Positions 27,464-44,851 are shown, counted from the stretch's first letter. The stretch: 64,000 nt of DNA from an uncultured Planctomycetales bacterium (GCA_964603585.1 CAZRVK010000007.1:45128-109127), one strand, 5' to 3'. The notes: a model not told the origin generated them from the sequence alone. Numbers and translations are program-made.

Positions 27464-27570
27464 AATCTCCCCAATCCCTTTTATTAAATTCTACTCTTTC
27501 CCCATGTTTTGTCAACCGTAGACTAGTTTCAGAAGTAATAGGGAAAAATGACTGCCGCCTTTCCTCTAGT

Positions 27571-27759
27571 CTATGACGATCCCCAAAGAGAACAAGCAGA
27601 ACAAGTACGGTCCTCCGTTGCACAACCTATATAGAACTCAGCAGGCCCTGTATAGACTGCCTCCTGCTTACAATTTACCAACACTCTTTCTTCCCTAATC
27701 CCACTTATTAAACCAATGAAATGCGGCTGTTTCCATTGCTTCTTCATTCTATAGCCCAT
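27571..27759 (-). CDS. small Cys-containing peptide P2 (62 aa; ORF-track N-terminal extension judged spurious)
   Basis: MGYRMKKQWKQPHFIGLISGIREERVLVNCKQEAVYTGPAEFYIGCATEDRTCSACSLWGSS; start set at ATG 27759 preceded by GGGGAG RBS; 5' coding region ~85% nt identical to P1. Confidence 0.5.
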   Translation of the reverse strand: MGYRMKKQWKQPHFIGLISGIREERVLVNCKQEAVYTGPAEFYIGCATEDRTCSACSLWGSS

Positions 27760-27789
27760 GATCTCCCCAATTCCTATCGTATCTTGCAT

Positions 27790-27856
27790 TTCCGGAGACA
27801 CATTGCTTAATTATCCGCAATTAAGTATCGTGCCCCCGAATCCACGACCTAATCTC
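27790..27856 (-). promoter_or_regulatory. conserved promoter/operator element copy 2 (upstream of P2)
   Basis: Minus-strand CACGATACTTAATTGCGGATAATTAAGCAATGTGTCTCCGGAAATG; same architecture as copies 1 and 3. Confidence 0.6.
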
Positions 27857-28279
27857 TTATTTAAAGATAATTATCAACGTACCACTCGTAATTAAGGCAA
27901 TCGCCAACCACTGATAAACGCCTAACCGCTCCCCTAAGAATAGAAGTGATAAAACCACCGCAAATACTAAACTTAGTTTGTCAATTGGAGCAACTAACGA
28001 TGCTGGTCCAGCTTGTAAAGCTCGAAAATAGCATAACCAGGAAAGCCCAGTTGCAATTCCTGAAAGAATCAAGAAAATCAAACTATGCTTATCAATCAGC
28101 AATGGATTCTTCCATTCCCTGCGAATAAAAATAATCGCGCCTAAAAAAACGATAATAACGATAGTCCTAATAAATGTGGCCAGATTGGATGAAATATTTT
28201 TTACTCCGATCTTTGCCAATACAGCCGTTATACCTGCAAAAAAGGCCGATAAGATAGCGAATATTTTCCAGTCAATCAT
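27857..28279 (-). CDS. small EamA/DMT-family permease (single EamA domain, 4 TM)
   Basis: 140 aa, four TM helices, EamA-like pattern (AILSAFFAGITAVLAK...LIITSGTLIIIF). Confidence 0.6.
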   Translation of the reverse strand: MIDWKIFAILSAFFAGITAVLAKIGVKNISSNLATFIRTIVIIVFLGAIIFIRREWKNPLLIDKHSLIFLILSGIATGLSWLCYFRALQAGPASLVAPIDKLSLVFAVVLSLLFLGERLGVYQWLAIALITSGTLIIIFK

Positions 28280-28373
28280 TAAGTTCCTTTATCCTTATCT
28301 GATGCAATAGGGGAAAATGCCTGTCCCAAAAGTGACTGTCACCTTCACCCCTTACTGCAATACAAAAACCCAG

Positions 28374-28580
28374 CTAACTTAAGGCAATCGTAGAACACTC
28401 ACCATTACAGAGAGGCACATTCCCAACACAGCTCAAATCAGACATAAATGCACCACCAAACACCTCATTTAGTCCCTTACATATACTTAAAACTTTTTCC
28501 TGGAGGTGATCTCCTCGCGTTAACACAATCAAAATTGGCTTTGCCCACTTCATTTTGAGTTTTGTTCTATTTCTTGTCAT
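28374..28580 (-). CDS. small Cys-containing peptide P3 (68 aa)
   Basis: MTRNRTKLKMKWAKPILIVLTRGDHLQEKVLSICKGLNEVFGGAFMSDLSCVGNVPLCNGECSTIALS; perfect RBS AAGGAGGT 9 nt upstream of ATG 28580. Confidence 0.5.
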   Translation of the reverse strand: MTRNRTKLKMKWAKPILIVLTRGDHLQEKVLSICKGLNEVFGGAFMSDLSCVGNVPLCNGECSTIALS

Positions 28581-28605
28581 TAAACTATTTACCTCCTTAA
28601 AGCCA

Positions 28606-28670
28606 TAGTTCCGGGAACACATTACGTAATTATCCATAAATTAAGTATCGTGTACCCTGAATAATCCTAC
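28606..28670 (-). promoter_or_regulatory. conserved promoter/operator element copy 3 (upstream of P3-EamA operon)
   Basis: Minus-strand CACGATACTTAATTTATGGATAATTACGTAATGTGTTCCCGGAACTA; GATAAT -10 inside a TTAATT/AATTAA dyad plus GTTCCCGGAAC palindrome. Confidence 0.6.
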
Positions 28671-28821: not shown

Positions 28822-28848
28822 AAACGGAGAGGCAGGGATATTAACCCT
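28822..28848. repeat. att-type direct repeat: partial copy of tRNA-Ser(GGA) 3' end (island left boundary)
   Basis: aacggagaggcagggat (17/17) plus 7/10 further matches to 43894-43920, which is the 3' part of the intact tRNA. Confidence 0.65.
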
Positions 28849-28870
28849 TTTATGCTCAAAATGCCCCTTT

Positions 28871-28893
28871 CACCACCAATTTCACCACCAAAA
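28871..28893. repeat. tandem CACCACCAAT(T)T motifs (arm-type/iteron-like), also present at 43728-43750
   Basis: caccaccaatttcaccaccaa here and caccaccaattcaccaccaa near the other island end. Confidence 0.5.
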
Positions 28894-28917
28894 ATCACGT
28901 TTACTGTAATAATCATA

Positions 28918-30018
28918 TCATTGTATCCTAGTTAGCTCAAGCACTTTTGCTAATCCTTCGCTTGTGCTATGGCTGTAATAACTAAGCACCACATCCGGAT
29001 CTTTATGCCCCGAGATTACCATTGCATCAACAATAGGCACATTATTTTTTCCACATTCAGTCAAAAATCTATGTCGAAAATATGAAGACGTAATCCTTAT
29101 TCCAACAATCTCTTCACTTATCTCTTTCAAATATTCACAAATTCTTCGTTGATTAAACTTGCTACCTTTCTTAGTAACAAATAAATATGGGACTTTATAC
29201 TTATTCGCATTTTGATACGCCTCCCTGATTAGATTCTCTAACTCAAAATCCAGCTTCTTCAAAGGCGCACTTTCATCGGTTTTTGTTGTTTCTGCCCTTA
29301 TATTTAAACCAACGGGTTTTATCCCATCCCAAACGACATCTTTTCTCTCTATAAGCGTAGTTTCTTCAACCCTTCTTCCTGTCCGCTGCATGAAATAAAT
29401 TGGTCTAAAATAATCAATCTTATCTTTCTTAATAAACATTAACAATTCACTTATTTTGCTATTTGAAATTTCAGGAAACTGCTTTTTGTTAGGTTTTGGC
29501 TTTTTTATTTCTTTAAGTCTTTCTATAATATCTTTGCTACAATAACCTAATCTATACATTCGCCCCATAATAGCTTTAACATCAATTAATTCTGACCTTA
29601 ACCCCTTTATTCGCCCTAATTCATTACAATAATAATTCTTATATTCTTCAAAAAACGCCAAACTTATTTGATTCGGATTCTTAACGTAGGGAAATTTTAA
29701 ATCCCTAAAATCGCCAAAAACTCGCCAAAAAGTCTTTTTATACCCCAACCAAGTTTTTCTCGGCTTTTGTTCTGCATTTAACCCTTGACTTATACCTTCC
29801 CAGACTTTAGAAAAATCAACTGTGAGGCGTAACTTCTCAGCTTCGGGCGTTTCTAATTCTTTTCGTTTCTGAGTTATTATTTCTGCACGAATGTTGTAAG
29901 CTTCCTGCATAGACCCAGCTTTGACAGTTTCCCAAAACCTCTGCCCCCTATTAGTCAAACGAAAATTGATCTGATAATTTCCCGCTTCGGTCTCTTTTAC
30001 CCCAACATATCTCTTCAT
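28918..30018 (-). CDS. tyrosine recombinase / phage-type integrase
   Basis: 366 aa; C-terminal catalytic region with R...HxxR (SSYFRHRF) and terminal Tyr (VLSYYSH); adjacent to att repeat. Confidence 0.85.
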   Translation of the reverse strand: MKRYVGVKETEAGNYQINFRLTNRGQRFWETVKAGSMQEAYNIRAEIITQKRKELETPEAEKLRLTVDFSKVWEGISQGLNAEQKPRKTWLGYKKTFWRVFGDFRDLKFPYVKNPNQISLAFFEEYKNYYCNELGRIKGLRSELIDVKAIMGRMYRLGYCSKDIIERLKEIKKPKPNKKQFPEISNSKISELLMFIKKDKIDYFRPIYFMQRTGRRVEETTLIERKDVVWDGIKPVGLNIRAETTKTDESAPLKKLDFELENLIREAYQNANKYKVPYLFVTKKGSKFNQRRICEYLKEISEEIVGIRITSSYFRHRFLTECGKNNVPIVDAMVISGHKDPDVVLSYYSHSTSEGLAKVLELTRIQ

Positions 30019-30191
30019 TAGCCCCTCTGTTTAAACCACTTCCAAAAATCTTCCTTAGTCGCCAAAAGTCTTTTACCGTGCTTTATCAAAGGACAACCAC
30101 TTCTTTCTTTCCATTTTTCACTATGGATAGTATTTGGTGCAATATGTAATATCTTTGCAACATCTTCAACTGTCAGAATTTCATTTTCCAT
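30018..30191 (-). CDS. excisionase-family HTH DNA-binding protein
   Basis: MENEILTVEDVAKILHIAPNTIH...: HTH_17/excisionase-like; start chosen at MENEIL. Confidence 0.5.
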   Translation of the reverse strand: MENEILTVEDVAKILHIAPNTIHSEKWKERSGCPLIKHGKRLLATKEDFWKWFKQRG

Positions 30192-30723
30192 GATTAACCT
30201 CCTTATTATGCCTAAGCCAATACCCACTCTTTCGCCTTTCTTTTCCATCCTTACTGCCAATAGGTCTACCTAACTTCTTGCCTTGTCGCTTTGCACGCTC
30301 CAATCCAGCCTTAGTGCGTTCGACTATTCTTTTACGCTCCTGTTGCGCTACCCAAGAAAATATGGCAAGTAATAATTGCCCCAATCCATCATCTCTGGTA
30401 TCTAACCACGATTCTTGGAGCGATTTCAATGCTACCCCATTTCGTTTAAGCCGCTCAAGATAACCTAGAGTGTTAGAAATCCCCTCTCTCGAAAGTCTAT
30501 CAAGCGCCCAAACAAGCACTAAATCAAACTTCCTTTGATCGGCATCGTCAAACATCTTCAGAAAATTTATCCTATCTCCGCTACCTCCGGAAGCCAAATC
30601 AACATATACTTCAACAATTTCTCCCCCTAACGCCTTTGCATATTCTCTAAGAGGTTGTAGTTGATTTTTAGGATCCTGGCTTTCATCATTCTTGCTTACC
30701 CGAGCATAAATTGCTATTCTCAC
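30181..30723 (-). CDS. serine recombinase (resolvase/invertase family)
   Basis: N-terminal catalytic domain IYARVS (Ser nucleophile) ...LDRLSR...; C-terminal HTH. Confidence 0.85.
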   Translation of the reverse strand: MRIAIYARVSKNDESQDPKNQLQPLREYAKALGGEIVEVYVDLASGGSGDRINFLKMFDDADQRKFDLVLVWALDRLSREGISNTLGYLERLKRNGVALKSLQESWLDTRDDGLGQLLLAIFSWVAQQERKRIVERTKAGLERAKRQGKKLGRPIGSKDGKERRKSGYWLRHNKEVNHGK

Positions 30724-30762
30724 TTCTCTCCTCCTCTCTATTTTAATCGCGAACCTTTGAAT

Positions 30763-30875
30763 ATGTGAATTTATTCACCTTTTACCTTAAGTATATCTAC
30801 ATCCGTGAATTTGTCAAGAATTATTTGTGAATTTATTCACCTTGACTTTATTCACGTTATAATTTATACTGATTT
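30763..30875. promoter_or_regulatory. divergent regulatory region with iterated GTGAATTTATTCAC operators and TTGACT-16-TATACT promoter
   Basis: Palindrome GTGAATTTATTCAC at 30765-30778 and 30827-30840, half-sites at 30805 and 30851; -35 30843-30848, -10 30865-30870, ATG at 30880 (near-leaderless). Confidence 0.6.
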
Positions 30876-30879
30876 CATT

Positions 30880-31440
30880 ATGAAAAACTTGCACGAAACA
30901 TTAGGGAGTTTAATCCGAAGGCGGCGTAAAGAATTAAAAATGACTGCTGAGGAATTAGCTATTAAAGTTCAAGTAGATCGAACTTATTTATCTAAAATGG
31001 AAAGGCACAATTTTATTCCTTCACTAGAAGTTCTTATGAGATTAAATGCGGTTTTGGATTTAAATACTTTCATTATAAATGATCCGGCAATAAGAAACAA
31101 AATAAAGTTTCCGCTCACCCCTGAGGTTTTTGAGAAAGTTTATTTTGAACATACTAAATCTCAAAACGAAGTGGCAGGTCTATTCTGGGAACAAATTGTT
31201 GCTAAAAAAGAGACTTCTGATAAATTATTTATATTAGATATACTGTCTACACTATGCGGGCCTGAACAGCTTAAGAATAAATCTTACCTCAAAGCTAGGG
31301 AGAAAGACTTTCTTAACTACATTAGAAATTGGCGAAAAGCTTACGCTGAGTTTATTAAGAAATACCAAGAAGCCGAAATACAACTTATCCTCAAAGACGG
31401 CATTCTAAAATACCCCCTCCCCTACTCAAACAACAAATAA
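30880..31440 (+). CDS. XRE-family HTH transcriptional regulator (repressor-like)
   Basis: N-terminal HTH_XRE (LIRRRRKELKMTAEELAIKVQVDRTYLSKMERHN); start moved to ATG 30880 downstream of promoter. Confidence 0.7.
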   Translation: MKNLHETLGSLIRRRRKELKMTAEELAIKVQVDRTYLSKMERHNFIPSLEVLMRLNAVLDLNTFIINDPAIRNKIKFPLTPEVFEKVYFEHTKSQNEVAGLFWEQIVAKKETSDKLFILDILSTLCGPEQLKNKSYLKAREKDFLNYIRNWRKAYAEFIKKYQEAEIQLILKDGILKYPLPYSNNK

Positions 31441-31448
31441 TCGCGCGC

Positions 31449-31991
31449 TTATTTAATGGACTCTGGTATGCGGACGGTACTTAAAATCTGATGACGTATC
31501 TGTTTTTCTGCTTCCTCAAGATAAATCATCGCTCCTTTTTCTGTAAAACTGTAAGTTTTTTTGCATTTTGGGCAGTACAGCTCATGATAAACTCCGGGAG
31601 CTCCAACAGCTTGCTGCAAATGAAGAGAAGTTTTATGAACTGGGCACAAAAAGTAAATATGCGGATCAACAGGATTATTTTGACGATCCTTCCAATATGT
31701 TATTTCGCATCGCCATTGCAGTCTCTGGAATTTACCATGCATTACCCTGGGCTGTTTTGGTTTTAATTGGAAGAAAAGTAAAATAATAAGGCTAATTGCT
31801 AAAATGAGTAAGGTCAGTAGTAGTAGAATAATCTTTAAGTAAAAATTAATGGGCAACTTTTGCAATGGTGGAAGAAAGAGTGGAAGGAGTTCTGACCAAA
31901 TACCAAGAAGAAGAAAACTAAAGAAAGATAATATTGCGGTTACTAGAACAGGCACAATATTATCTTGTATGGATTTTAGGATGTTTGTCAT
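31449..31991 (-). CDS. hypothetical membrane protein with C-terminal zinc ribbon
   Basis: 2 TM helices then CPVH...CPKC Zn-ribbon; island cargo. Confidence 0.35.
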   Translation of the reverse strand: MTNILKSIQDNIVPVLVTAILSFFSFLLLGIWSELLPLFLPPLQKLPINFYLKIILLLLTLLILAISLIILLFFQLKPKQPRVMHGKFQRLQWRCEITYWKDRQNNPVDPHIYFLCPVHKTSLHLQQAVGAPGVYHELYCPKCKKTYSFTEKGAMIYLEEAEKQIRHQILSTVRIPESIK

Positions 31992-32239
31992 TAATCTTAT
32001 TTAATCACCAATAATGTAGGAAATCAATAAAAATGTATTTTGCATAACACTTCTTAAAATAATTCGTAGAAACTGTATGTGAGAGGAGGATTTCTTTAAG
32101 GCTAAATAAATAATAACTCAAGGAAAATACGGTCGTTTATTTAAAATATAATTTTATACTTAATAATAGACTAAAATTGGTGGGGAGGGTTATTTGCTTC
32201 CTTCTGATCAACTAAGCATTAACAGGTTTTATTATTAAC

Positions 32240-33082
32240 TTACCCATCAAAATATAACATAACTCTTCTGGTAAGACTTTCTACTTCACTATCCGGTAAA
32301 TGAACTTGATCACAGATCTCATTCATAGCAGCAAAATGTTTTCTGAAAAATAATTCCGTGGTAGAATCATTTGCTAAATACAAGGAACCATTTGGTTTTT
32401 TCTGATAGTTACAAAGAGAAAAGCCTATAAACATAAGCCCCGTATGTAATTTTGATAAAAAGAAGAACCAATAAGGAAACCGATTATCGAGAAGAGATAC
32501 CCAATGTCTCACTTCTTTAATCTCGCAGAGCTCTCTATAGTCATTCTCATAACCGGATATTCCAATATCTACGCGTTCAAAATACTTTCTCGCAATACTA
32601 GGTTTAAGTAATAAATCTAAACTATTTAATATCCCCCTGGTAGACTGCTTTTCCACATCTTCTCTTGAAGAAATAAGAGTTAAAAAATCTATTCCTACAT
32701 TATCTTCAGCTAAAGTAATATCTTCTCCGGAAAACTTAAAAGTATCTGCAATAAGTTTATCTCTTTCTATTTCTCTTAAGATTTTACCCATTAGAACGTT
32801 GGTTCTATACAATCTAATGACTAATGGATGTATATCTTGCAAGAAATCTGGTCTTAGATCTTGAGGTAATGAAGTATTTGTAAGAATAACCATCAAGACT
32901 TTCAAATCTTCATAATATGCCTTATCCTGATCTCCATCTTTTATTTTCATAAATCCAGTTCTCTTCTTATTTTCTATTTTGATTCTTTGGGCTTCCTTAC
33001 AAACCAAATCCATAGCTTCCAACTGGTTACTAAATCTGGCACTTGTACAAAAATCTTTAAGATTATTGGTTTTCGCAATCAT
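32240..33082 (-). CDS. hypothetical protein (island cargo)
   Basis: 280 aa, no recognisable motif; C-terminal hydrophobic segment. Confidence 0.3.
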   Translation of the reverse strand: MIAKTNNLKDFCTSARFSNQLEAMDLVCKEAQRIKIENKKRTGFMKIKDGDQDKAYYEDLKVLMVILTNTSLPQDLRPDFLQDIHPLVIRLYRTNVLMGKILREIERDKLIADTFKFSGEDITLAEDNVGIDFLTLISSREDVEKQSTRGILNSLDLLLKPSIARKYFERVDIGISGYENDYRELCEIKEVRHWVSLLDNRFPYWFFFLSKLHTGLMFIGFSLCNYQKKPNGSLYLANDSTTELFFRKHFAAMNEICDQVHLPDSEVESLTRRVMLYFDG

Positions 33083-33098
33083 AACATATACTTAAAAC

Positions 33099-33407
33099 TT
33101 AGTTAACAGTTTTGGACTTCTTTTTAAATAACCAACAATAATACGCAAAAACGATTACTCCTCCCAAAAACGGGTAGAAAGCGCTTTTCTCTAAGTCTAT
33201 AGCTCCATGAGCAAACCAATCTGAAAAAGATGCTAGAATTATATAAAATATAGTTGCAATAATAATAGAGATAAACCTCTGTTTATTACTCTGTTTTTTG
33301 GTAACAAAACAAAGGATTGAGTTTGTAAGCGCAGCAAAAGCAAATGCGACTATACCACATCCTGTTACAAAACCAAAAAAACTAATAATCGGATAATTAT
33401 TGTCCAC
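33099..33407 (-). CDS. small 3-TM membrane protein (island cargo)
   Basis: 102 aa, three hydrophobic helices. Confidence 0.3.
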   Translation of the reverse strand: MDNNYPIISFFGFVTGCGIVAFAFAALTNSILCFVTKKQSNKQRFISIIIATIFYIILASFSDWFAHGAIDLEKSAFYPFLGGVIVFAYYCWLFKKKSKTVN

Positions 33408-33612
33408 TTTATTCCCTCTCTTCCATTTTGCCCCTATAAAACAAAAGGGGGCGCATATTCATTACCGGCAACCGTTAAGTAAAACCGATAAGACTGCATT
33501 TCCCCCTCCCCTTTCGGGGAGCGGTGCAGCTTACCTTACTTAACGGTTAGAGGCCTTAAATCCTCTTTAAGGTATAGCTATAACCAAATTGTCTAAATCT
33601 TGTTACTAAATA

Positions 33613-34356
33613 TTACACCGACTTTCGTAATTCATTAAGTTTCACCCATTCACCTGGGGCTCGTTCATAAGTCCAAGACTGCCATCCATTCATAGGTCCC
33701 TTAACTATGGCTTGTGCGGCAAGAGAAGGCGAAGTAAATATTTTACCCTGTAATCGACTAGCCTCCGCACTATCACGCGCAAATGCTATAGAGCCATCAT
33801 TTCTAACGTGGGCAACATAAAGTTTGCTCTTATACCTCATTTTTATATGGAATCTATTAGTCACAAAAGGTGCCAACGTAGACTTCTTACCATCAGATTT
33901 TATTATCTTTTTATCATGAAGTCTAGAATTACATTTCTTATCTACTCCACAAAATAACTCCTCCAGCTCAATACTCAATGCCTTAGATATATCTCGCCTA
34001 AATACTCTACGTAAATCATCGGCCTTTCCAAATTTACCTTTTTGTAAATTTCCTTTTGGTTTAACAATACGCAACACCAAAGCCTCTAACTCCCGCAGGT
34101 GTTGATCTCCAATCGTAAGATATATGCTAAAACTATCCCAGGTTGAAGCATGACGATCTTTCAGATGATGTCGTAAACGAGATCGTAAATTTGAAGCCAA
34201 TCCCACATAATATAGTTTATTTCTACGATAAAGCGAATAGACACCATACCTACCTTTGACATACTTGCGAATTATATTCTGGTATTTCTCTAAAGCCGTT
34301 CTCGAAATATTTTCTAAATACTGACACACTAAATTACCGGCCTTATTCTTATTCAT
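33613..34356 (-). CDS. GIY-YIG nuclease-domain protein (type I R-M associated)
   Basis: LYYVGLASNLRSRLRHH matches GIY-YIG (YYVG..N...R...H); located immediately 3' of hsdS. Confidence 0.55.
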   Translation of the reverse strand: MNKNKAGNLVCQYLENISRTALEKYQNIIRKYVKGRYGVYSLYRRNKLYYVGLASNLRSRLRHHLKDRHASTWDSFSIYLTIGDQHLRELEALVLRIVKPKGNLQKGKFGKADDLRRVFRRDISKALSIELEELFCGVDKKCNSRLHDKKIIKSDGKKSTLAPFVTNRFHIKMRYKSKLYVAHVRNDGSIAFARDSAEASRLQGKIFTSPSLAAQAIVKGPMNGWQSWTYERAPGEWVKLNELRKSV

Positions 34357-34374
34357 ACTATCTCTCTTCCTTTT

Positions 34375-35790
34375 CTATTTCTCCAAAATAACATTTAATT
34401 TCTTCAATTCCGCTTCAATCCAACTTTGAGCGTCTTCTTCACTCTTCTCAATCGCCATTTCAACACCGCGCGTGGCAATATCAAGAAGTCCTTTTGACAA
34501 TGCTTTTGCGTTATACATCTCTGTAATTTTCTTTTTAATATCGCTCTGAATCCCTGCTGGTAAATCCGGCAGGACGATTCGTTTAAATTCGTCGTCACCG
34601 ATAGCGGTCAAGATAGTGCCGGAGCAACCCTTTTTAAGCTGTAACTGTCCAGCCGGCGACTTGAGCAAAACAAGCAATGTTTCCGAATTTATCTTTTCAG
34701 AATGAACGACAAAAAAACCTGTAGAACATAAAGCATTATCCAAATCATCATTTATCAAAGCAACACTTGAAAGAGCCCCTTCAATAGTCGAAACAATGAC
34801 ATCTCCGGCATTAACCTTACGTCTCGCCCGAGTAGGTAATTCTTTGCCTTGTGCTTCGATAAATCCGTTAATGTTTCCATTCGCCGAGATATTAGCAAGC
34901 TCGATATAGCGGTAAGTTACTTCATCCTTTGGCTGGAAGTTCTTGTCTTTTACCCTGACAATTTCATCCAATGGTTTATAACCTTTTTTGTATTGCTTGA
35001 TGTGACCCAGAACCTCATCATATTTAGGCTGAAAGTATTCCGCATCGATACGTTCGCTCGTCTGCGTTTCGGAGAAATTCTTGACGAAAGAAAGGCGATG
35101 CATCGGCTTCCAGTTTAAAAGGCCGAGCTCAGAAAGAAGGGCTTGCTCGGCTTCCCTATAAATATTGACAGATTTCTCTTTTAACAACTCTGCCTGTAAA
35201 ACAATTTTGTGTGTTACCGCTTTTATTTTTTCGCCCAGCAATACAACTTTAATATTCTTGATGTCTTCCAATTCGAGCTTACCTTGCCCGGAAAGCATAA
35301 TAATTCGCTTGATTTGCCCATTACCATATTTTGAAAGTAAATATGCAAGCAGAAAACCCGGCGTAGTTATGTCTTTTTTCAGCTTAACACCCGTTACGTT
35401 CTGACTAAAATTATATCGTGTGTATTTTTCTGGAAGCATAGCTACATCACCGATATAAGCCCCAATTTTTGTAAAAACAATATCGCCCGGCGTTAATTCT
35501 GTTTTTCGATTAAGGACTTGTGTTTTTTCATCGAGAAAAACAGTAGAAGAGAAATCTATTTGCGGATCTTTAATTTCGGAGGTACGGATTAGCGGTATAC
35601 CCTGCTCTCTATAGAAATCAGGAGATAAATCAAAAATTCCTTTTTTAATAAAAAGGCTGTATGTCAAAAATGCTTCCGTTTGATGCGAATTTAACGTCTT
35701 CTCCAACTGCAGAAAATCTGGCGAATAAAATTCAGCATCTATCCTTAAATTTCCGTGTAACCTTGATTTATTAATGATCGAATATTGCAT
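34375..35790 (-). CDS. hsdS: Type I restriction-modification specificity subunit HsdS
   Basis: 471 aa, two target-recognition domains separated and followed by conserved coiled-coil repeats; immediately downstream of and overlapping the MTase gene. Confidence 0.7.
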   Translation of the reverse strand: MQYSIINKSRLHGNLRIDAEFYSPDFLQLEKTLNSHQTEAFLTYSLFIKKGIFDLSPDFYREQGIPLIRTSEIKDPQIDFSSTVFLDEKTQVLNRKTELTPGDIVFTKIGAYIGDVAMLPEKYTRYNFSQNVTGVKLKKDITTPGFLLAYLLSKYGNGQIKRIIMLSGQGKLELEDIKNIKVVLLGEKIKAVTHKIVLQAELLKEKSVNIYREAEQALLSELGLLNWKPMHRLSFVKNFSETQTSERIDAEYFQPKYDEVLGHIKQYKKGYKPLDEIVRVKDKNFQPKDEVTYRYIELANISANGNINGFIEAQGKELPTRARRKVNAGDVIVSTIEGALSSVALINDDLDNALCSTGFFVVHSEKINSETLLVLLKSPAGQLQLKKGCSGTILTAIGDDEFKRIVLPDLPAGIQSDIKKKITEMYNAKALSKGLLDIATRGVEMAIEKSEEDAQSWIEAELKKLNVILEK

Positions 35791-35792
35791 AG

Positions 35793-37844
35793 TTATTTCC
35801 AGAAACTTAATTTCTCTTTTTGCGCCCAGTCAATAAACGCCTCAGCAATGCCATCGGGAAGCTCGCCTTTATGATTGTGCAAGTCATGATCAACGATTAA
35901 ATGGCCGTATTTATCCAACTTAGGCTTACCGTCGCCATTCTTAACGTAAACGTAATCTCCAGAATTATCCTTGCCCGACTTTTCGGAAACGCCAAAGAAT
36001 ATCGAGTAGTCGTCTTTTTTAGGACAGCTCTTGTCATCGCATTTTTGCAGGAATAAAACACTGGTCTTTGTACCGGTGTGAGGCTTAAAAGTATTGCAAT
36101 GCAAACCCACAACCGCCAAGATACGAGCCTTACCAGCGATAAATTCACGGATGTCTTTATCCGATGTGTTATTAAACCTGCCTTGAGGTAAAACTATGGC
36201 TAATCGTCCGCCGGGCTTGAGAAAGTCAAGATTGCGTTCAATAAAAAGAATATCTCGCCCAACTTTTGGTTTAGGTTTTTTCTTTTCATTAAAACCGAGA
36301 TCATATTTATGAATGATATTTGACTCTTTAATATCTCCAGCAAAGGGCGGATTGGCCATTAGAATATCAAAGAGAAATTCCTTGTTTGAATTACGATCTG
36401 CCCTAAGTGCTTCAAGACGTCTAAAACCACTGCTGTAGGTATCTCTCCAGTCAGGATTGTTTACTTTCTCATTCCAGCGATCGTAATCAAGCGTGTTGAG
36501 ATGCAAAACATTTGTTTCACCGTCACCGGCGATTAAGTTTAGCGTGCGGGCAACACGAACAACTTTTTCGTCAAAATCTATTCCGAATACTTTTAGCACA
36601 TCGTCTTTTTCATCCGCTGAAACCTCGGTGTTTTCAAAGAGATGCCCAGTAAGCTGAAAGATAGTATGCACGGTGAATCCGCATGACCCCGAGGCAGTGT
36701 CAATCATGTATTCGCCTCGTTTAGGATTAAGCATCTTGACGCACATATCAATCACATGCCGAGGCGTGAAATATTGACCTTTCTCACCTTTAGAGGACTT
36801 GCTAACCAAATATTCAAAGGCTTCGTCAATAACTTGCAAATTGGAATTAAAGAGTTTTACATCCTGAAGGCTGGAAACACAGATCGATAAATGCGAAGGC
36901 GATAAATCAATCTTGCTCTGCTCTGGAAATACTCCGGGCCACTTTTTCTTGGCTTCATCAAACAACCTCTGAATCTTTCCCTTTAACTGTGCGTCGGTCT
37001 GGCCGGTATTTCTAAACTCTAAAATACGAAAGTCACTGTCATCAATGTCTTTTAAGACTGCTTTTAGTTTCTCAAAGTCACCAATTTCGTCCACTTTCAA
37101 TTTTCTCTTAACCGTTCGGTCAATAATAACTTTATCATCTTTACTTTTTGTCTCGTCGTATAACTTCGTAAAGATGAGCTTAAATACTTCCTCGAATACA
37201 TCCACGCCCGCATTGGCGAGGACTTCATCTTCCATGTCCTCAATCTTGGTCTTCAAAGTTATTCTATCGTTTAAGAGAGCATCTTTGACAATCAAATCCC
37301 TCCACGTAAAACGTTCTTTCAAAATATCTTCAAGTGTCTGATCTGCTTTCGGGATATCAGTAATATCCTCAAAGAAATTCGGGTCTTTGCGGTTATAGTG
37401 GGAAATCTGTCCACCATTTGACCAAACGCCAATCGGAGCCCCGGTCGCATTACAATATGACTTAAGCTGTTCCTTGCCGTCTTTGAGTCTTGGCTTTTTA
37501 ACCTCAACGATAATATATTCAACCATCGGTCTATCTTTATCAAAAACAATTATGTCGGCGGATTTTGTTTCCCGGCCAAATTGAACAGGGTGCTCAAAGC
37601 GTATCCGTTTTTTTGGATAGCCGTAATCATTAATGAGCTTTACGGCATAAAGCTGACGAACGACTTCTTCCGGCTTTAGCTGGACTTCTTTTTCCCGAAT
37701 GACACAGTCAACGTGAGGCTTGCCTTTCTGAATCTTGATTCTTGACTCAAGGGCATTGATGTCTTTTGCCGCAAATAGAGAAAGGTTATAACTCGAATCT
37801 CTAAGAATAGAGGCGAGCGTTATTTTATCTTTACCGTTTGCCAT
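35793..37844 (-). CDS. hsdM: N6-adenine DNA methyltransferase HsdM fused to an N-terminal HsdR_N-like PD-(D/E)xK nuclease domain
   Basis: C-terminal MTase motifs (NPPF at LMANPPFAGD, SAM-binding DTASGSCGF); N-terminal ~230 aa with D...EVK core (ADIIVFDKDRPMVEYIIVEVKKP) typical of HsdR N-terminal nuclease domain. Confidence 0.75.
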   Translation of the reverse strand: MANGKDKITLASILRDSSYNLSLFAAKDINALESRIKIQKGKPHVDCVIREKEVQLKPEEVVRQLYAVKLINDYGYPKKRIRFEHPVQFGRETKSADIIVFDKDRPMVEYIIVEVKKPRLKDGKEQLKSYCNATGAPIGVWSNGGQISHYNRKDPNFFEDITDIPKADQTLEDILKERFTWRDLIVKDALLNDRITLKTKIEDMEDEVLANAGVDVFEEVFKLIFTKLYDETKSKDDKVIIDRTVKRKLKVDEIGDFEKLKAVLKDIDDSDFRILEFRNTGQTDAQLKGKIQRLFDEAKKKWPGVFPEQSKIDLSPSHLSICVSSLQDVKLFNSNLQVIDEAFEYLVSKSSKGEKGQYFTPRHVIDMCVKMLNPKRGEYMIDTASGSCGFTVHTIFQLTGHLFENTEVSADEKDDVLKVFGIDFDEKVVRVARTLNLIAGDGETNVLHLNTLDYDRWNEKVNNPDWRDTYSSGFRRLEALRADRNSNKEFLFDILMANPPFAGDIKESNIIHKYDLGFNEKKKPKPKVGRDILFIERNLDFLKPGGRLAIVLPQGRFNNTSDKDIREFIAGKARILAVVGLHCNTFKPHTGTKTSVLFLQKCDDKSCPKKDDYSIFFGVSEKSGKDNSGDYVYVKNGDGKPKLDKYGHLIVDHDLHNHKGELPDGIAEAFIDWAQKEKLSFWK

Positions 37845-37916
37845 GTTTAATTTTCTCCTTCAAAAATTTCTCAATATAATACTACTGGATTTTGTCAGAT
37901 TTACACCTTTAACCAG

Positions 37917-38087
37917 TTATATTTTATCTCTCTTCGGCTTATAAAGCAACTGCTTTAAGTCTTTTGCAGAAAACTCATCCGCAGATTCCAAGCCACACTC
38001 ATATCTCAGAAATTGATACAGCCTAATTATTGCCTTAGTCTCTTCAATAAGCTTCCTATGCCTTATATTCCATAGCCAGGGGAACAT
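37917..38087 (-). CDS. small conserved protein (paralog of 51041-51202)
   Basis: KLIEETKAIIRLYQFLRYECGLESADEFSAKDLKQLL ~60% identical to the phage-region copy; start set at MFPWLW. Confidence 0.4.
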   Translation of the reverse strand: MFPWLWNIRHRKLIEETKAIIRLYQFLRYECGLESADEFSAKDLKQLLYKPKRDKI

Positions 38088-38129
38088 ATTACCACCTCCT
38101 GATATAATAGACGCAAGAAGTAGCAAAAT

Positions 38130-38867
38130 CTAACAAATTTTCTTCATCTTTTCCCTTTTTCCTTCAATCCATTTCAATAAGTCATTTTCTTTCATCTTGT
38201 ACCGGTTACCTACCTTGAAAAATGGCAGTTCTCCAAGAAGCATCTTTTCTCTAACAGAGCCATAGCTTGCCCCTAGATACTTAGCCGCTTCTCCCAAGCT
38301 TAAAACTTTATCTTTTGTAGTAATACTTGTAAACTTTCCAGAAAGTTCATTCTTAAGCTCTTTAAATATATTTTCAGTCTTTTTCACTGCTTCTTTATGG
38401 TAATAAAAATATTCTTTCATCTCTTTCACGGCTTCATGCAGAGAACGGTGCAAAGAAACAATAGCATGTTCCTTAAAGAATCTATCAAGCCTATCGATAT
38501 CTCTTTTCAACTGCCTTATCTCCCTAAAGAATGTTTCCTTATCTATAACATTTCTGGGTTCCTCTACTAGCTTATTAGATATATCACCAAGCTTCTTTTG
38601 CAATGTCTTCTTTACCCTTAATCTTTCTTTTAAGCCTTCTATCTCTCTACCGACTTTTTCAACCTTCAAATTAACAAGATTAGGGTCGTAATTGATATCC
38701 TTATTTAGTTTTTCAATCTCTTCGCATATCTTCATACTATCCTGTATATCTTCAAGCAATTCTTGGAATCTTTCAGCCTCTTTTATTGCACGAAAACCTC
38801 TTTTGTTTCTAATTCCATTCTGTATCCAATGGACATAAGCTTTTCCATCATCACCCAAAGAAATCAT
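38130..38867 (-). CDS. coiled-coil protein with C-terminal excisionase/MerR-type HTH
   Basis: Long heptad-rich middle; C-terminal LSLGEAAKYLGASYGSVREKMLLGELPFFKVGNRYKM HTH_17-like. Confidence 0.45.
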   Translation of the reverse strand: MISLGDDGKAYVHWIQNGIRNKRGFRAIKEAERFQELLEDIQDSMKICEEIEKLNKDINYDPNLVNLKVEKVGREIEGLKERLRVKKTLQKKLGDISNKLVEEPRNVIDKETFFREIRQLKRDIDRLDRFFKEHAIVSLHRSLHEAVKEMKEYFYYHKEAVKKTENIFKELKNELSGKFTSITTKDKVLSLGEAAKYLGASYGSVREKMLLGELPFFKVGNRYKMKENDLLKWIEGKREKMKKIC

Positions 38868-38917
38868 TTAATCTTCTCCTTATGCGAATGCAAAAAAACA
38901 ACTAAAGGTGAATTAAT

Positions 38918-39856
38918 TCAGAAAACCAAATCGGATAAACTCTTTAGTCTCAACTTTTTCTCTCTAAGACTCTGAGCCATATTTTCGAGCCCTAGATGTT
39001 CAAACTGAACTCTGATATCTGTCAATTCCAGTAATAAATTAGCTGCCATAAGTAAAGATAAAATAATTCCCTTTTTATCTTCCTTTGGGTTAATGTCCAT
39101 TTGATCTGGCTTATCTTTAAATAGGCTTGAACCTATATGGGTATTATGGGTAGACATTGATAGATACCGATAACTTGCATTCATATCTTCTTTATTACTA
39201 CAATAATTAAGTATGGCTTCGGCACTTGGGTATTCAGGCTTAAACCAAAATGCCTTTGGTTTAGTTCTTTTTAGAAAATTATTTATATAAATCTCGATTT
39301 CTTTTCTATCCTTGGAAGACAACCTAATTTTAAGATCCTCGAGCTGCTGCTGTTGGAATCCTCTCAGATCATCCTTAGTTTCTGAAGAATGGATTAAATC
39401 ATTCAAATAATCATTCGCATAATATCGAAATGCCCAGTATTCGCTATTCTCTCTTGTTATCACTATATAAAACATTAGGCATTCCATTAAACTCCTTAAA
39501 ATAACGGCAGCTGTCGAAGACCATCCATTTTCGCAAAGTGATAGTACACTTCTATATAATTCGATTGCTCTAGTAGCAATACGATATAAGGCAGAGCGGG
39601 TTAGAATATTTTTATTCTTATCTTTACTAGGAGGATTGTATTTTTGAAATGAAATTTTATTTGCTTCTATTGCGAAATCGAGAACGTCATTATAAAATTC
39701 AAGAAATGGCTTAAATCTTGGGGAGTTTAAATTTGTAAAAGTGGCAGTTCCCTTAATAAAACCTCGCTTATAACCTTCTTTAAATCCACGGTGAATCCCT
39801 CGTTTATATATAATTCCCCAAACTAATTTTATTCTTTCAAAGAATATTATTCCCAT
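38918..39856 (-). CDS. hypothetical protein (island cargo)
   Basis: 312 aa, no recognisable motif. Confidence 0.3.
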   Translation of the reverse strand: MGIIFFERIKLVWGIIYKRGIHRGFKEGYKRGFIKGTATFTNLNSPRFKPFLEFYNDVLDFAIEANKISFQKYNPPSKDKNKNILTRSALYRIATRAIELYRSVLSLCENGWSSTAAVILRSLMECLMFYIVITRENSEYWAFRYYANDYLNDLIHSSETKDDLRGFQQQQLEDLKIRLSSKDRKEIEIYINNFLKRTKPKAFWFKPEYPSAEAILNYCSNKEDMNASYRYLSMSTHNTHIGSSLFKDKPDQMDINPKEDKKGIILSLLMAANLLLELTDIRVQFEHLGLENMAQSLREKKLRLKSLSDLVF

Positions 39857-39985
39857 TAAGTTTAACTTTAAGAATATAAAAAGGGGCTAATAACCAAATA
39901 ATCCTCCCTCCCTATTATTGATGACTTCTATTCTTAACAATCAATATCAAATAATCGTTCGTTTGTTTGGTAGAGAAATTCATCT

Positions 39986-41905
39986 TTATAATCCCCTATC
40001 CTTAATATATTTTATACCCGAAACGGGTTTAATAGGTGCATCCTGTAAGAATCTAGTTATTACCCTATGCAGCACTTTATCAACCCTTCCAGTAAAAGCT
40101 TGAGGACCTATTCTTCTTTCACAATAAGTCATAAAAATGGCTTCTTTAGCTCTACTCAATGAAACAAACAGCAACCTTCTTTCATCTCCTATTTCATCTC
40201 CTTCGTAACGTCCAGGAATAACTTGATCTTCAACACCTACTATTATAACAACTGTGGCTGTTAAACCCTTGGCTTTGTGCATAGTTAGAATATTAATTTT
40301 ATCATCTTCCATTTCCTGTTCTATTTCTTCGTCTGAAGATGATAAGTTTCTTAATAAACTAGGCAAATCTCCTGAATCAGTTTCGACGCAAATTTTCATT
40401 AGATATTCAACTTCTTTTTCGATATTTATAGGATAAATCTTACTGAGATTAAGTATCTTTTTAAGCAATTCTTTATTATCTTTTGCATCTTTGAATTCAT
40501 CATCCAATTGTTCAATCAAACGTAAATTTTCATTAATTTCTGATTTTAGACTTTCGCTAAAGCCACCCGTATCTTCTTCTTTAATCTTTATTAGGCATTC
40601 AGTAAAAGTCACCCCATTATCAAGACATTGTTTAAAGATTTTTGCTAGGGTTTCTACCCCGACATTATTATTTCTTAATTGTAAAATCGTTCTCCAAGCA
40701 AGATGATCAAATTGATTATGAACTAATTTAAGATGCGCTAACAATAAAAGACCCGTTTTTGCTTCTAGAGGATTATCATTTTCAATATTAACGTGAACTG
40801 GAAGACCCAATAATTCTAATTTATCTTTTATTGGACTGGACATTACTCCATGAAAATCGGACCGCAACAAAATTAAAATTTCTCCTGCTTCAACCTGACC
40901 ACCCTTAATTAACGAAAAGCATATTTTAGCTATAGCTTCGGCTTCTGGATATTGGTTATCAAATCTTAGTAATTCTACATTACCCTTTGGAGCTCCAGGA
41001 GGAATTTTCATTCCCTTCCCCCGTCTAAGTCTTTTGGTATCTAAATCAGCTACAAACTCGCTTATCTTTAATATTTCTTCGCCACACCTCATACAAGTTT
41101 CGAGCTCAAGCTCTTCAGTTGGAATATAGTCTATCGAGAATCGTCTTATCCCATCAGGGTGAGCAAATCTAAATCCATAAATACTTTGATCATCGTCTCC
41201 AGCAACAAAAATTGACGCATCGAGCTTTTCGGATAGTGTTTTGATAACAGACAAGTCGCATCTATTCAAATCTTGATATTCATCAACAAGAATATGAGTA
41301 AATTTCTTCGCAAGCTTAAAATCTCCTGTTTGTTCTACTGCCCTTTTAAATTGATAGACTAATTCCGATCTCAAGGTATATCCAAACTTTTCTCTGTGTT
41401 CTCTCCAAGCTCCGAGAAATACTGGGTCTGAAAATCTCTTTTCCCAATCAGCGTCATCTGCTTTTAAAGTTTGCCAATCCGCAGATAAAAAAGCAAATTT
41501 AGTCTGAATTTCTTTTATTGGACAAGACAATGTCTTTTTTAAATCTTCCTGGATTATATTCCGCTCTTCCCAATCACTGGCTATTCTTAAAGGTTTGGGG
41601 AGCTTTTCGATAATCTTTGCATTATGTAAAATCTGACTTAAGGCGAACGAATGTAACGTTACTACATGCGGCAAAAGTTTAGCTTTCCCTAAAAGAATTC
41701 CTATTCTTTTTCGTAATTCAGCTGCGGCGGCTCGGGTAAAAGTTAATACTAGAATGTTATCGGGCTCAATCTTAGCTTCTTCAATCAAATACTTTACTCG
41801 ATATGTTATTGTTCTAGTTTTTCCTGTTCCTGGGCCAGCTAAGAGCCGGATAAACTTACTATCCGATTCACAAGCTTTTTGTTGTTCGGGCAATAATTCC
41901 CCCAT
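39986..41905 (-). CDS. UvrD/Rep/PcrA-family SF1 DNA helicase
   Basis: Walker A AGPGTGKT, motif II DEYQD, motifs III-VI in order. Confidence 0.8.
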   Translation of the reverse strand: MGELLPEQQKACESDSKFIRLLAGPGTGKTRTITYRVKYLIEEAKIEPDNILVLTFTRAAAAELRKRIGILLGKAKLLPHVVTLHSFALSQILHNAKIIEKLPKPLRIASDWEERNIIQEDLKKTLSCPIKEIQTKFAFLSADWQTLKADDADWEKRFSDPVFLGAWREHREKFGYTLRSELVYQFKRAVEQTGDFKLAKKFTHILVDEYQDLNRCDLSVIKTLSEKLDASIFVAGDDDQSIYGFRFAHPDGIRRFSIDYIPTEELELETCMRCGEEILKISEFVADLDTKRLRRGKGMKIPPGAPKGNVELLRFDNQYPEAEAIAKICFSLIKGGQVEAGEILILLRSDFHGVMSSPIKDKLELLGLPVHVNIENDNPLEAKTGLLLLAHLKLVHNQFDHLAWRTILQLRNNNVGVETLAKIFKQCLDNGVTFTECLIKIKEEDTGGFSESLKSEINENLRLIEQLDDEFKDAKDNKELLKKILNLSKIYPINIEKEVEYLMKICVETDSGDLPSLLRNLSSSDEEIEQEMEDDKINILTMHKAKGLTATVVIIVGVEDQVIPGRYEGDEIGDERRLLFVSLSRAKEAIFMTYCERRIGPQAFTGRVDKVLHRVITRFLQDAPIKPVSGIKYIKDRGL

Positions 41906-42116
41906 TTTTTCTCCTTTTACGCTATCATCATTTTAAATATAGCCTTTATCCACATGTCATATTAGCAAGGCTCAATCATAATTTACATTATACAACTTCT
42001 ATTGCAAAATAATATAGATTTAGCAAGAAAAGTTCGACATTTGCGTACTGAACAATGCTCGTGACATGTTAACCTGTTTTTGCCACTTAATAATTTTTCT
42101 ACTCGAAAATGTGGAA

Positions 42117-42368
42117 CTAATCTAATGGCGGGAAATAACCAGTAGACAAATATTGTAGTAAATGGCTGTGTAAATCTTCGATTGATAAAGCTTTAATCTT
42201 TTTTATAAACTCCACGTCTAAGGCTTGGTTAAGCCGTTTAACTATATCTTTATCTAATTCTTCTGAACTCATTTCATTTATTTTCTTACCATTAATAGTA
42301 ATTTCTTGCGTTTTTTGCATATCGATTGTACACTTTTCTATCAAATTTAATCTTTTTATAATCTTCAT
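42117..42368 (-). CDS. hypothetical small protein
   Basis: 83 aa. Confidence 0.25.
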   Translation of the reverse strand: MKIIKRLNLIEKCTIDMQKTQEITINGKKINEMSSEELDKDIVKRLNQALDVEFIKKIKALSIEDLHSHLLQYLSTGYFPPLD

Positions 42369-42369
42369 G

Positions 42370-42750
42370 TTAAAACCTCCTATTTAATTTTGTTTTTTCT
42401 TCCAAACTATCTATCCTTGCTTCAATATCTTCTAGTTCTATACTTTTAAACGCATAATCAAGTATATCTTTACAAACTAGGCGTTTTAGATCTGCCTTTT
42501 CATTATCAATAAGCTTAACTAATTCATCTACAGCCCGAGATATAGCGCTCTTTAACCTAAAACGTGCTTCTTTGGTAATTTCATTTCTTTGCCGACTCAA
42601 CTCTGCTTTAAAAGCTTCCTCTTTTAACCAGGTATATAAAGTTCCCTTGCTTATTTTAGACTTTCGCCTAGCCTCTTCTAAACTACAAGATGAGAGGATT
42701 TGATTAATTGTTAACAATTGTCTAGTTGTTAAAGCGTTTTTCTCTGCCAT
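42370..42750 (-). CDS. terminase small subunit-like HTH protein
   Basis: N-terminal ALTTRQLLTINQILSSCSLEEARRKSKISKGTLYTWLKEEAF resembles TerS N-terminal DNA-binding domain. Confidence 0.4.
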   Translation of the reverse strand: MAEKNALTTRQLLTINQILSSCSLEEARRKSKISKGTLYTWLKEEAFKAELSRQRNEITKEARFRLKSAISRAVDELVKLIDNEKADLKRLVCKDILDYAFKSIELEDIEARIDSLEEKTKLNRRF

Positions 42751-42831
42751 TTTGCTTAAAACCGTATAATTTGGTTTAGTTTAGTCTACCAATAGCCTCT
42801 TTTATATTAGTCGTATTATCCATAACTCAAG

Positions 42832-43014
42832 TTAGGTATTCTGAGAAATACGGCCCTTTCTACCGCCTATTCCCTTCCGGTTAGGATTCTTGCCAAATCG
42901 GTAAACGAAAAAATGACAATCTGCACTTTCACAAAACCGCACAGCTTTCGGGCTGTTTCCTTGGCAATCAAGACACCAAACTCTAATAGCTCTTAATGGA
43001 GTTAATTGTTTCAT
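42832..43014 (-). CDS. small zinc-ribbon protein
   Basis: CLDCQG...CESADCH four-Cys cluster. Confidence 0.3.
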   Translation of the reverse strand: MKQLTPLRAIRVWCLDCQGNSPKAVRFCESADCHFFVYRFGKNPNRKGIGGRKGRISQNT

Positions 43015-43459
43015 TTGTATTCACCTCCTTATATCGCCTTAATCGGCTATTTATTCTAAAGAATTCTAGATTATCGCTATTAAAAACGCACTTATCTGCT
43101 AAGTATTCGCTAGCAGGATAGATAATTCTGCTATGATCATAGGGTTTAACTTTTGACAGCCCAAACGCTTTCTGACACTCTTTCTCAAGAGCAGGCGCTA
43201 AAACAGGATTAATTCCTTTTATGAGAGCATGAATATGATACCCCTCCCCCTTTATTGTTTTCTCGAAATAAACCCAACTAAGAATGAATTTCTCATAGTA
43301 TACCTTGTCCGGTTTATTCAAAAACTTAAAGAATCTCTTGAAGCTTTTCATTGCCGTATCCAAGCTCACACTTCTTCTAAAAGTTACCGTAAACCACAAA
43401 TCGGCTCCGAGCCTTTCCACAAATTCTTTAAACCCCATTTTAAGTTTATTCTTTTCCAT
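42983..43459 (-). CDS. HUH-superfamily rolling-circle replication initiator (Rep)-like protein
   Basis: Motif I-like FTVTF, HUH motif YHIHALIKG, downstream Tyr (EYLADK). Confidence 0.5.
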   Translation of the reverse strand: MEKNKLKMGFKEFVERLGADLWFTVTFRRSVSLDTAMKSFKRFFKFLNKPDKVYYEKFILSWVYFEKTIKGEGYHIHALIKGINPVLAPALEKECQKAFGLSKVKPYDHSRIIYPASEYLADKCVFNSDNLEFFRINSRLRRYKEVNTNETINSIKSY

Positions 43460-43639
43460 TTTTCTTCCTTCCTCTTACCCCTACCAACTGAACAGCTTGC
43501 CACATGGCCCGGATTACTTCGGGAGAGGTATAATGAGCGTTTATGGTAGACTGGCGGGCCGATTCGTACTCTTCGTCAGTTAGGAGATCTTTAAGTTTAA
43601 CCATTCTCTCTACGATTCTCTCTTTATAATAAGATTCAA

Positions 43640-43752
43640 GTCAGCCCTCCTGAGGCTGATTCAACCTAAAACATCAAACCAAAACTAACCTTGCAGCTGG
43701 AATATGCCGAACCGCAAGTCGAGAAAAACACCACCAATTCACCACCAATTCA
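43640..43752. promoter_or_regulatory. putative origin region upstream of rep: hairpin plus CACCACCAATT iterons
   Basis: Inverted repeat tcagcc-tcctga-ggctga at ~43643-43662; tandem caccaccaatt x2 at 43728-43750. Confidence 0.4.
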
Positions 43753-43893
43753 ATAAAAAAAGCCACTTCATAGATATTGTCATATCTTGAAATGGCTTTA
43801 CTTTACTTGTTATATAACTATCTGATTCTAATAGATGTTGCGGTAATTTAAATAGGTATTTATTGATATACCGCCACTTACCATAAAAAGTAT

Positions 43894-43920
43894 AACGGAG
43901 AGGCAGGGATTCGAACCCTG
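43894..43920. repeat. att-type direct repeat (within tRNA-Ser 3' end; island right boundary)
   Basis: Matches 28822-28848. Confidence 0.65.
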
Positions 43921-43980: not shown

Positions 43981-44066
43981 TAAATCTAAAACTCCTTACA
44001 ATCTTATAATTTAAGACGATTAAGTATATCATATCGCCTGCAAATAAACAAATCTTAAGTAAGATT

Positions 44067-44849: not shown

Positions 44850-44851
44850 TA

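Follow-up and report, generated by a model that had tools for sequence, protein, structure and literature searches.

In the present study, we analysed a stretch of 64,000 nucleotides from an uncultured Planctomycetales bacterium (GCA_964603585.1 CAZRVK010000007.1:45128-109127), hereafter called the window, and focused on a minus-strand operon at positions 33,613 to 37,844. The operon encodes a fusion of a nuclease with an adenine methyltransferase, an HsdS-like specificity subunit (S) and a GIY-YIG protein; the fusion is referred to below as the restriction-modification (RM) protein. An earlier reading of the sequence alone, here called the original prediction, had described these genes as a Type I-like module without an HsdR subunit. 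The three genes, with protein lengths in amino acids (aa), are as follows:

35793..37844, minus strand: RM subunit gene, 683 aa; nuclease, helical connector, gamma-class N6-adenine methyltransferase and short C-terminal tail
34375..35790, minus strand: S gene (hsdS), 471 aa with two target recognition domains (TRDs); Pfam Methylase_S
33613..34356, minus strand: gene for a putative GIY-YIG–RAMA/DUF4357 accessory nuclease, 247 aa; Pfam GIY-YIG, PADLOC PDC-S14

The order of the genes agreed with the original prediction, in which HsdS and GIY-YIG genes follow the methyltransferase gene, and the Pfam matches confirmed the identity of both. The predicted overlap of hsdS with the methyltransferase gene was not found in the sequence; the two genes are separated by a spacer of 2 nucleotides (nt) between the TAA of the first and the ATG of the second. 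The GIY-YIG gene starts 18 nt past the stop codon of hsdS, and the spacer contains a purine-rich ribosome-binding site. No minus-strand terminator-like site was seen between the three genes in a promoter and terminator scan that performed at chance level overall.

The RM protein was divided into three parts based on the profile matches and the AlphaFold2 (AF2) models:

37350..37727, minus strand: nuclease (R) domain, residues ~40-165, with E84, D97, E114-x-K116 and the RecB/HsdR-type Q126xxxY130
36855..37337, minus strand: multi-helical connector, residues ~170-330, all-helical in the AF2 model
36015..36842, minus strand: N6-adenine methyltransferase domain, residues ~335-610, with NPPF at 498-501 (36342-36353)

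A profile search of the N-terminal domain, which the original prediction had proposed, identified Pfam HSDR_N_2 at residues 58-165 (E 1.8e-27; 96 bits, with a cut-off of 25). N6_Mtase was matched at residues 338-625 (E 1e-34), Eco57I was also matched in Pfam, and the PADLOC profile MTase_I PDLC03034 matched the protein at 954 bits. HsdM_N (PF12161) gave no Pfam match in the 683 aa protein, the N-terminus of which consists of HSDR_N_2 and the connector. The translation could be read directly for D97...E114-V-K116, N498-P-P-F501 and the S-adenosylmethionine (SAM) motif DTASGSCGF. These results supported the predicted methyltransferase with NPPF and SAM motifs and an N-terminal nuclease. The AF2 model of the whole protein had a mean predicted local distance difference test score (pLDDT) of 84.9 and a predicted template modelling score (pTM) of 0.76. 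The models revealed a nuclease core of ~125 residues and, after it, a helical connector of ~160 residues. The predicted PD-(D/E)xK fold was upheld by the HSDR_N_2 match and the conserved site, and the predicted extent of ~230 aa was reduced to residues ~40-165. Only ~70 residues follow the methyltransferase domain, and these form mostly beta structure with one terminal helix in the AF2 model.

We then evaluated the conservation of the nuclease site. Residues 1-240 of the RM protein were searched against 1.84 billion cluster representatives, which yielded 1606 relatives. The conservation set consisted of the 87 best matches of at least 230 aa, which were 50%-identity cluster representatives down to ~40% identity; many gene fragments occurred. 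E84, D97, E114, K116, Q126 and Y130 were nearly invariant across these 87 representatives. In a second set of 81 sequences, comprising the window protein and those of the 80 best related species loci, the same six residues were present in 80-81 and NPPF was invariant (81/81). The mean identity to the query in this set was 74% for the R domain and 80% for the methyltransferase domain. We assign the pattern E…D…ExK…QxxxY to the RecB/HsdR-type nuclease signature on the basis of the EcoR124I HsdR motif. The N-terminal domain has a genuine nuclease fold and an active site that is intact and strongly conserved, which makes the nuclease domain look functional.

The 471 aa protein was matched by Pfam Methylase_S, and its PDB matches were Type I HsdS structures. 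The PADLOC Specificity_I profiles span residues 57-449, and the NCBIfam profile MAD5 spans residues 1-448, with a score below the cut-off. Across the 80 related loci, the identity of S to the window protein was 24-85%, whereas that of the RM protein was 65-94%. These values are those expected of a swappable specificity module, and S behaves as one.

The window contained no candidate for a superfamily 2 (SF2) HsdR. Its longest open reading frame (ORF) encodes 722 aa (57900-60068) and is a phage tail tape-measure protein. In a Pfam scan of the window's other large ORFs, no ResIII or other helicase was present among the 25 families listed of the 65 matched. The sole helicase found in the window was a superfamily 1 (SF1) UvrD-like protein at 39986-41905. 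In these respects the original prediction held: there was no SF2 HsdR in the window, nor generally at the family loci described below, and the only helicase nearby was of the SF1 UvrD-like type.

The best PDB sequence match of the RM protein was RM.BsaXI (8w0p), the RM subunit of a Type IIB enzyme. A family profile matched RM.BsaXI with E 1.6e-46, compared with ~1e-22 for Type I HsdM. The profile also matched the nuclease domain collinearly with that of BsaXI (independent E-value 3.4e-4), the connector region was collinear as well, and E84/E114/K116 of the RM protein aligned with E73/E105/K107 of BsaXI. Alanine substitution at E73, D90, E105 or K107 has been reported to eliminate BsaXI cleavage (PMC11997821). 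In a Foldseek search with the full AF2 model, the three best matches were BsaXI RM chains, which aligned over ~695 columns with E ~2e-21. Type I HsdM structures aligned over ~430-550 columns, on the methyltransferase side; for the Type IIG enzymes DrdV and BpuSI, the alignments spanned at least 600 columns. A separate model of residues 1-200 (pLDDT 87) matched the BsaXI restriction endonuclease domain best, followed by Cas4, restriction-endonuclease-like proteins, BpuSI and HsdR nuclease domains.

Type IIB enzymes such as BcgI and BsaXI are defined by an architecture in which an RM fusion is combined with an S subunit (PMC11997821, PMC9159934). Both BsaXI and BcgI form (RM)2S assemblies, recognise bipartite sites and cut on both sides of them without ATP (PMC11997821). 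Like the Type IIB enzymes BcgI, BsaXI, BveI and BaeI, the window system carries an N-terminal PD-(D/E)xK domain, a helical connector and a gamma-class N6-adenine methyltransferase in one chain, and a separate two-TRD HsdS-like subunit is encoded immediately downstream, without a helicase. The RM gene of BsaXI lies ahead of its S gene within a single transcription unit, and S.BsaXI has 476 aa (PMC9159934); the window system has the same gene order and an S of 471 aa. The RM fusion, the catalytic residues, the separate S, the lack of a translocase subunit and the homology to a characterised Type IIB RM subunit, by which we judged membership of Type IIB, were all found. The similarity to BsaXI is remote, with an overall identity to RM.BsaXI of just ~18-19%, and, unlike in BsaXI, the nuclease domain in the window is of the HSDR_N_2 type with a QxxxY motif. 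In lacking the knob and paddle of BsaXI, the window RM protein is similar to the RM subunits of the BcgI type, which are shorter (PMC11997821).

The system was also compared with Type I enzymes such as EcoKI and EcoR124I (HsdM2·HsdS·HsdR2). The specificity subunit is of the HsdS type, the methyltransferase core is HsdM-like (PDB matches 2y7c, 2okc and 5ybb) and the nuclease domain is of a kind that HsdR carries at its N-terminus. Unrelated defence genes can lie between the methyltransferase and S genes in related loci, as with prrC in EcoprrI (PMC12707154). Unlike in Type I enzymes, an HsdR translocase was found neither in the window nor in related loci, HsdM_N is lacking, and the nuclease sits on the methyltransferase subunit.

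To describe the family, we searched 5.8 billion proteins with the RM protein and obtained at least 8000 matches. The best 120 relatives were 77-92% identical, came from many phyla, and all carried HSDR_N_2 and N6_Mtase. A scan of one genome per species revealed at least 582 loci, in bacteria and at least one archaeon, and the 80 best related loci were taken for neighbourhood analysis. The S gene lay downstream of the RM gene on the same strand in ~70 of the 80, and most of the exceptions were contig ends. Many related loci consisted of the RM and S genes alone, and a cultured example of such a bare pair was present on a Klebsiella pneumoniae IncF plasmid. When all ORFs of at least 600 aa near the 80 loci were clustered and scanned with Pfam, no recurrent helicase was found; these ORFs fell into small, lineage-restricted clusters, none of which recurred across phyla. 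ResIII was matched in 3 of 43 representatives of these large neighbours, and one member of the set was a Type ISP enzyme. A Pfam scan of the nearest upstream ORFs of related loci identified no conserved upstream gene or regulator.

The slot between the RM and S genes, or just past S, varied among the 80 loci. It held DUF1016/YhcG nucleases or DUF4145 proteins at some loci and, elsewhere, AAA_15/AAA_21 ATPases with DUF4276, RhuM/Fic, PIN, AbiU2 or PycTM. The commonest accessory was a Pfam-less family of 190-270 aa proteins, encoded between the RM and S genes or immediately after S at 10 of the 80 loci (L001:13474-14052, L035, L043, L044, L049, L061, L072, L076, L078 and L079) and on the Klebsiella plasmid (L096:10389-11180). 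Its member at L001 terminates in 'IRCHLFHG', an Rx4H motif reminiscent of HEPN RNases.

Longer forms of the RM protein were also observed. The N-terminal domain of the family heads proteins of 1105-1210 aa, one of which had a Methylase_S match, and this indicates single-chain R-M-S fusions; forms of ~900 aa are headed by the same domain. Both kinds have parallels among Type IIB/IIG enzymes. Plasmid pAQ6 of Picosynechococcus sp. PCC 7002 encodes a single-chain relative of 1179 aa (L095:7001-10540), which is 60% identical over the methyltransferase part. This relative is annotated only as 'N-6 DNA methylase' and is probably an R-M-S fusion; the host is a cultivable, transformable cyanobacterium, which makes it a convenient experimental model. 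In some Poribacteria genomes (L054:6918-9743; L073:3803-9715), one or two paralogues of ~930-940 aa lie in tandem directly upstream of the RM-S pair. These paralogues carry HSDR_N_2 and N6_Mtase with a longer C-terminus and are 63-65% identical to the query.

Collectively, we consider it probable, at roughly 65%, that the RM and S genes together constitute an RM system of the BcgI/BsaXI-like (Type IIB) kind, which is complete in itself and works without HsdR. The analysis shows the domain architecture, the conserved active site, the obligatory pairing with S, the lack of a conserved helicase partner and the homology to BsaXI. The methyltransferase subunit would carry the nuclease itself, as is the case for Type IIB enzymes, and this would account for the missing HsdR. 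By analogy with BsaXI and BcgI, one HsdS-like subunit would be bound by two copies of the 683 aa protein to yield an (RM)2S assembly, and the two TRDs of S would read a bipartite target. The NPPF domains would methylate one adenine per half-site and mark self DNA. On unmethylated DNA, the PD-(D/E)xK domains (E84, D97, E114, K116) would cut at fixed positions near the site, presumably on both sides of it, and cleavage would proceed without ATP-driven translocation. The original prediction had offered either a methylation-only system or a non-canonical restriction arrangement, with the methyltransferase-borne nuclease or the GIY-YIG protein as the cutter. Cleavage by the methyltransferase-borne nuclease is the option favoured here; the arrangement is that of a Type IIB enzyme rather than a non-canonical one, and the GIY-YIG protein as the cutter is not supported.

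Several observations weigh against the Type IIB interpretation. The nuclease-domain match to BsaXI was weak (22 bits; Foldseek E 1e-4), and D97 was 2 residues off BsaXI D90 in the ungapped profile alignment. Unlike RM.BsaXI, the window RM protein is without the C-terminal knob and helical paddle (683 vs 916 aa), and in BsaXI the paddle residues D816 and E823 are required for cleavage (PMC11997821). Databases label the family 'Type I MTase' (PADLOC PDLC03034, a REBASE-derived profile) or 'N-6 DNA methylase'. We found no biochemical or methylome data for the RM family in the literature; for HSDR_N_2, PDC-S14 and RAMA nucleases, likewise, the literature yielded no functional study of either the RM family or the GIY-YIG–RAMA family. 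In addition, a nuclease-bearing methyltransferase does not prove autonomous restriction, because Mad2 and Mad5 of the MADS defence system share the two-protein layout, yet MADS needs six further genes.

The first alternative to be weighed is that the pair is a methylation-only (orphan) methyltransferase, in which the PD-(D/E)xK domain now serves DNA binding, regulation or assembly. Solitary Type I-like methyltransferase and specificity gene pairs exist, and together with the missing HsdR and the annotation of the family as a methylase alone they count in favour of this explanation. An orphan methylase is difficult to reconcile with the retention of E-D-ExK-QxxxY in 80-81 of the 81 sequences and in nearly all distant representatives, or with an R domain that is conserved almost like the methyltransferase domain. 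Moreover, BsaXI, the closest characterised relative, cleaves with the equivalent residues (PMC11997821). The near-invariant catalytic residues made the methylation-only option of the original prediction unlikely, and we consider it improbable.

The second alternative, to which we assign a still lower probability, is that the locus is incomplete or dependent in trans, as the remnant of a MADS-like or Type I system whose other parts (ATPases, HsdR) lie elsewhere or have been lost. The NCBIfam profiles MAD2, MAD5 and MAD1 did match the RM, S and upstream helix-turn-helix proteins, and Mad2 is collinear with residues 46-644 of the RM protein, including its N-terminal domain, with Mad5 as the corresponding S subunit. 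MADS recognises a bipartite site, and its defence depends on mad2-4 and mad6-8 (bioRxiv 10.1101/2023.03.30.534895). The scores were, however, far under the equivalog cut-offs (290.6 vs 720, 128.2 vs 400 and 24.8 vs 80, respectively), and no PADLOC match to mad3-8 was obtained among the ten island ORFs scanned; on these grounds, identity with MADS was rejected. Unlike MADS, the window system has no mad3, mad4 or mad6-8 that could be found, and the RM family is usually a bare two-gene unit. The recurrence of the RM-S pair without a constant neighbour at 80 loci in many phyla also argues against a remnant, as does the position of the operon on a compact mobile island with defined ends.

Finally, we regard it as very improbable that the GIY-YIG–RAMA protein serves an M·S methyltransferase as its dedicated restriction nuclease, in a system of three components. 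The gene of this protein follows S closely in the same orientation, without a terminator-like site between them, and its catalytic motifs are intact, but the protein is not a partner of the RM family (one weak match at the 80 loci), the slot is filled by many unrelated genes, and its homologues adjoin complete Type I, III and IIG systems that have nucleases of their own.

The GIY-YIG protein itself was characterised by profile matches. The domain positions are as follows:

~34042-34251, minus strand: GIY-YIG core (Pfam)
~33619-33840, minus strand: RAMA/DUF4357 region (Pfam, sub-threshold)

GIY-YIG scored 24.5 bits, above the cut-off of 22.6, and RAMA (32.9, cut-off 35.2) and DUF4357 (26.2, cut-off 38.4) remained sub-threshold; the PADLOC candidate PDC-S14 matched with E 2.7e-10. 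Homologues 52-76% identical to the 247 aa protein carried RAMA, DUF4357 and GIY-YIG matches. Among 121 family members, G38-x-Y40, Y50-V-G52, R60, H64, E89/E91 and N103 were at least 95% conserved. The family is compact (~245 aa), with a conserved, Trp-rich RAMA/DUF4357 C-terminus, and the window protein matches this two-domain GIY-YIG–RAMA (PDC-S14) layout without any feature that sets it apart.

The original prediction had raised the possibility that GIY-YIG genes regularly accompany the fusion. At the 80 RM-family loci, blastp found no GIY-YIG protein, and the family hidden Markov model (HMM) gave one weak match on the opposite strand, so a regular partnership was not supported. Of 11 independent contexts of GIY-YIG–RAMA homologues, 8 had the gene next to an RM system and in the same orientation. 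These RM systems were complete Type I systems with HsdR (L083, L097), Type III mod/res systems (L081, L085), MmeI/Eco57I-like Type IIG enzymes (L086, L089, L092) and an Eco57I-type methyltransferase with a ResIII protein (L090). In 5 of the 8, the gene started 14-28 nt past the last RM gene. As judged from these genomic contexts, the GIY-YIG–RAMA protein is an accessory that accompanies adenine-methyltransferase RM operons in general, in keeping with the name RAMA, and does not supply the nuclease that seemed to be missing from the window operon.

GIY-YIG–RAMA fusions have been proposed as possible 6mA-dependent Type IV nucleases (PMC11037411). The protein might sense the N6-methyladenine (m6A) state through its RAMA domain, or detect that its partner RM system has failed or been inhibited, and might provide a second layer of cleavage. 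A broader proposal, which we hold only tentatively and regard as rather doubtful, is that GIY-YIG–RAMA is a portable reader-nuclease functionally coupled to the adenine-methyltransferase RM system that it adjoins, given its occurrence at the end of Type I, Type III, Type IIG and the present Type IIB-like operons, while the HSDR_N_2–methyltransferase and S family alongside it represents a large pool of ATP-independent enzymes. As a possible accessory nuclease coupled to RM systems, the GIY-YIG–RAMA protein is well suited to experimental study.

Three further minus-strand genes lie directly upstream of the RM operon (38130-41905). They encode the UvrD-like SF1 helicase, a protein of the DUF5677 family and a coiled-coil protein of 245 aa whose C-terminus holds an HTH_17/excisionase-type domain. 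The best PADLOC matches of the helicase were to GajB, and GajA was not present. None of the three was conserved beside the RM family, as blastp and family HMM searches of all ORFs of the 80 loci gave no match to UvrD-like, HTH_17 or DUF5677 proteins, and the helicase was rejected as a component of the family; the three genes could belong to a module of their own, for defence or for maintenance of the island. Between the HTH_17 and RM genes lies an ORF of 56 codons (37917-38087, minus strand), which has a strong ribosome-binding site (AGGAGG) and might encode a small regulator of the RM operon.

The operon is carried by an integrative island, in which the following features were identified:

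28823..43919: integrative island of ~15.1 kb that carries the operon, bounded by a direct repeat of the tRNA-Ser(GGA) 3' end
43896-43980: tRNA-Ser gga, the island attachment site
28918-30018: integrase (Pfam Phage_integrase), at the island end far from the tRNA
30181-30723: serine resolvase (Pfam Resolvase), which adjoins the integrase
30805-31440: HTH_3 protein

The island ends consist of a 26-nt imperfect direct repeat, 88% identical, at 28823-28848 and 43894-43919, and the GC content falls to 0.33-0.40 over 28-44 kb. Four tRNA-Ser genes (gga, cga, tga and gct) and a tRNA-Lys gene are located among protein-coding genes at 43896-50914, and the island uses the first of them. Outside its left end, at 27235-28661, we observed a 51-nt repeat in three copies, with 63-76% identity to the reference copy, and a pair of 72-nt repeats, amid which lie short EamA-like ORFs (27857-28279 and 28374-28637); these may be pieces of genes, duplicated or decayed, where the island integrated. 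The region at ~51000-64000 is a probable prophage or phage-derived region, and the best named homologue of the 722 aa tape-measure protein was from Candidatus Omnitrophica.

The mobile tRNA-Ser island setting fits a horizontal spread of the RM family. A widespread family that is labelled as a methylase keeps an intact nuclease site, and annotation may therefore understate the number of genomes with active restriction. If active, the family would offer a great many restriction enzymes for bipartite sites, with specificities that can be exchanged, and the HSDR_N_2–methyltransferase and S family could be among the largest untapped pools of ATP-independent restriction enzymes that act at such sites.

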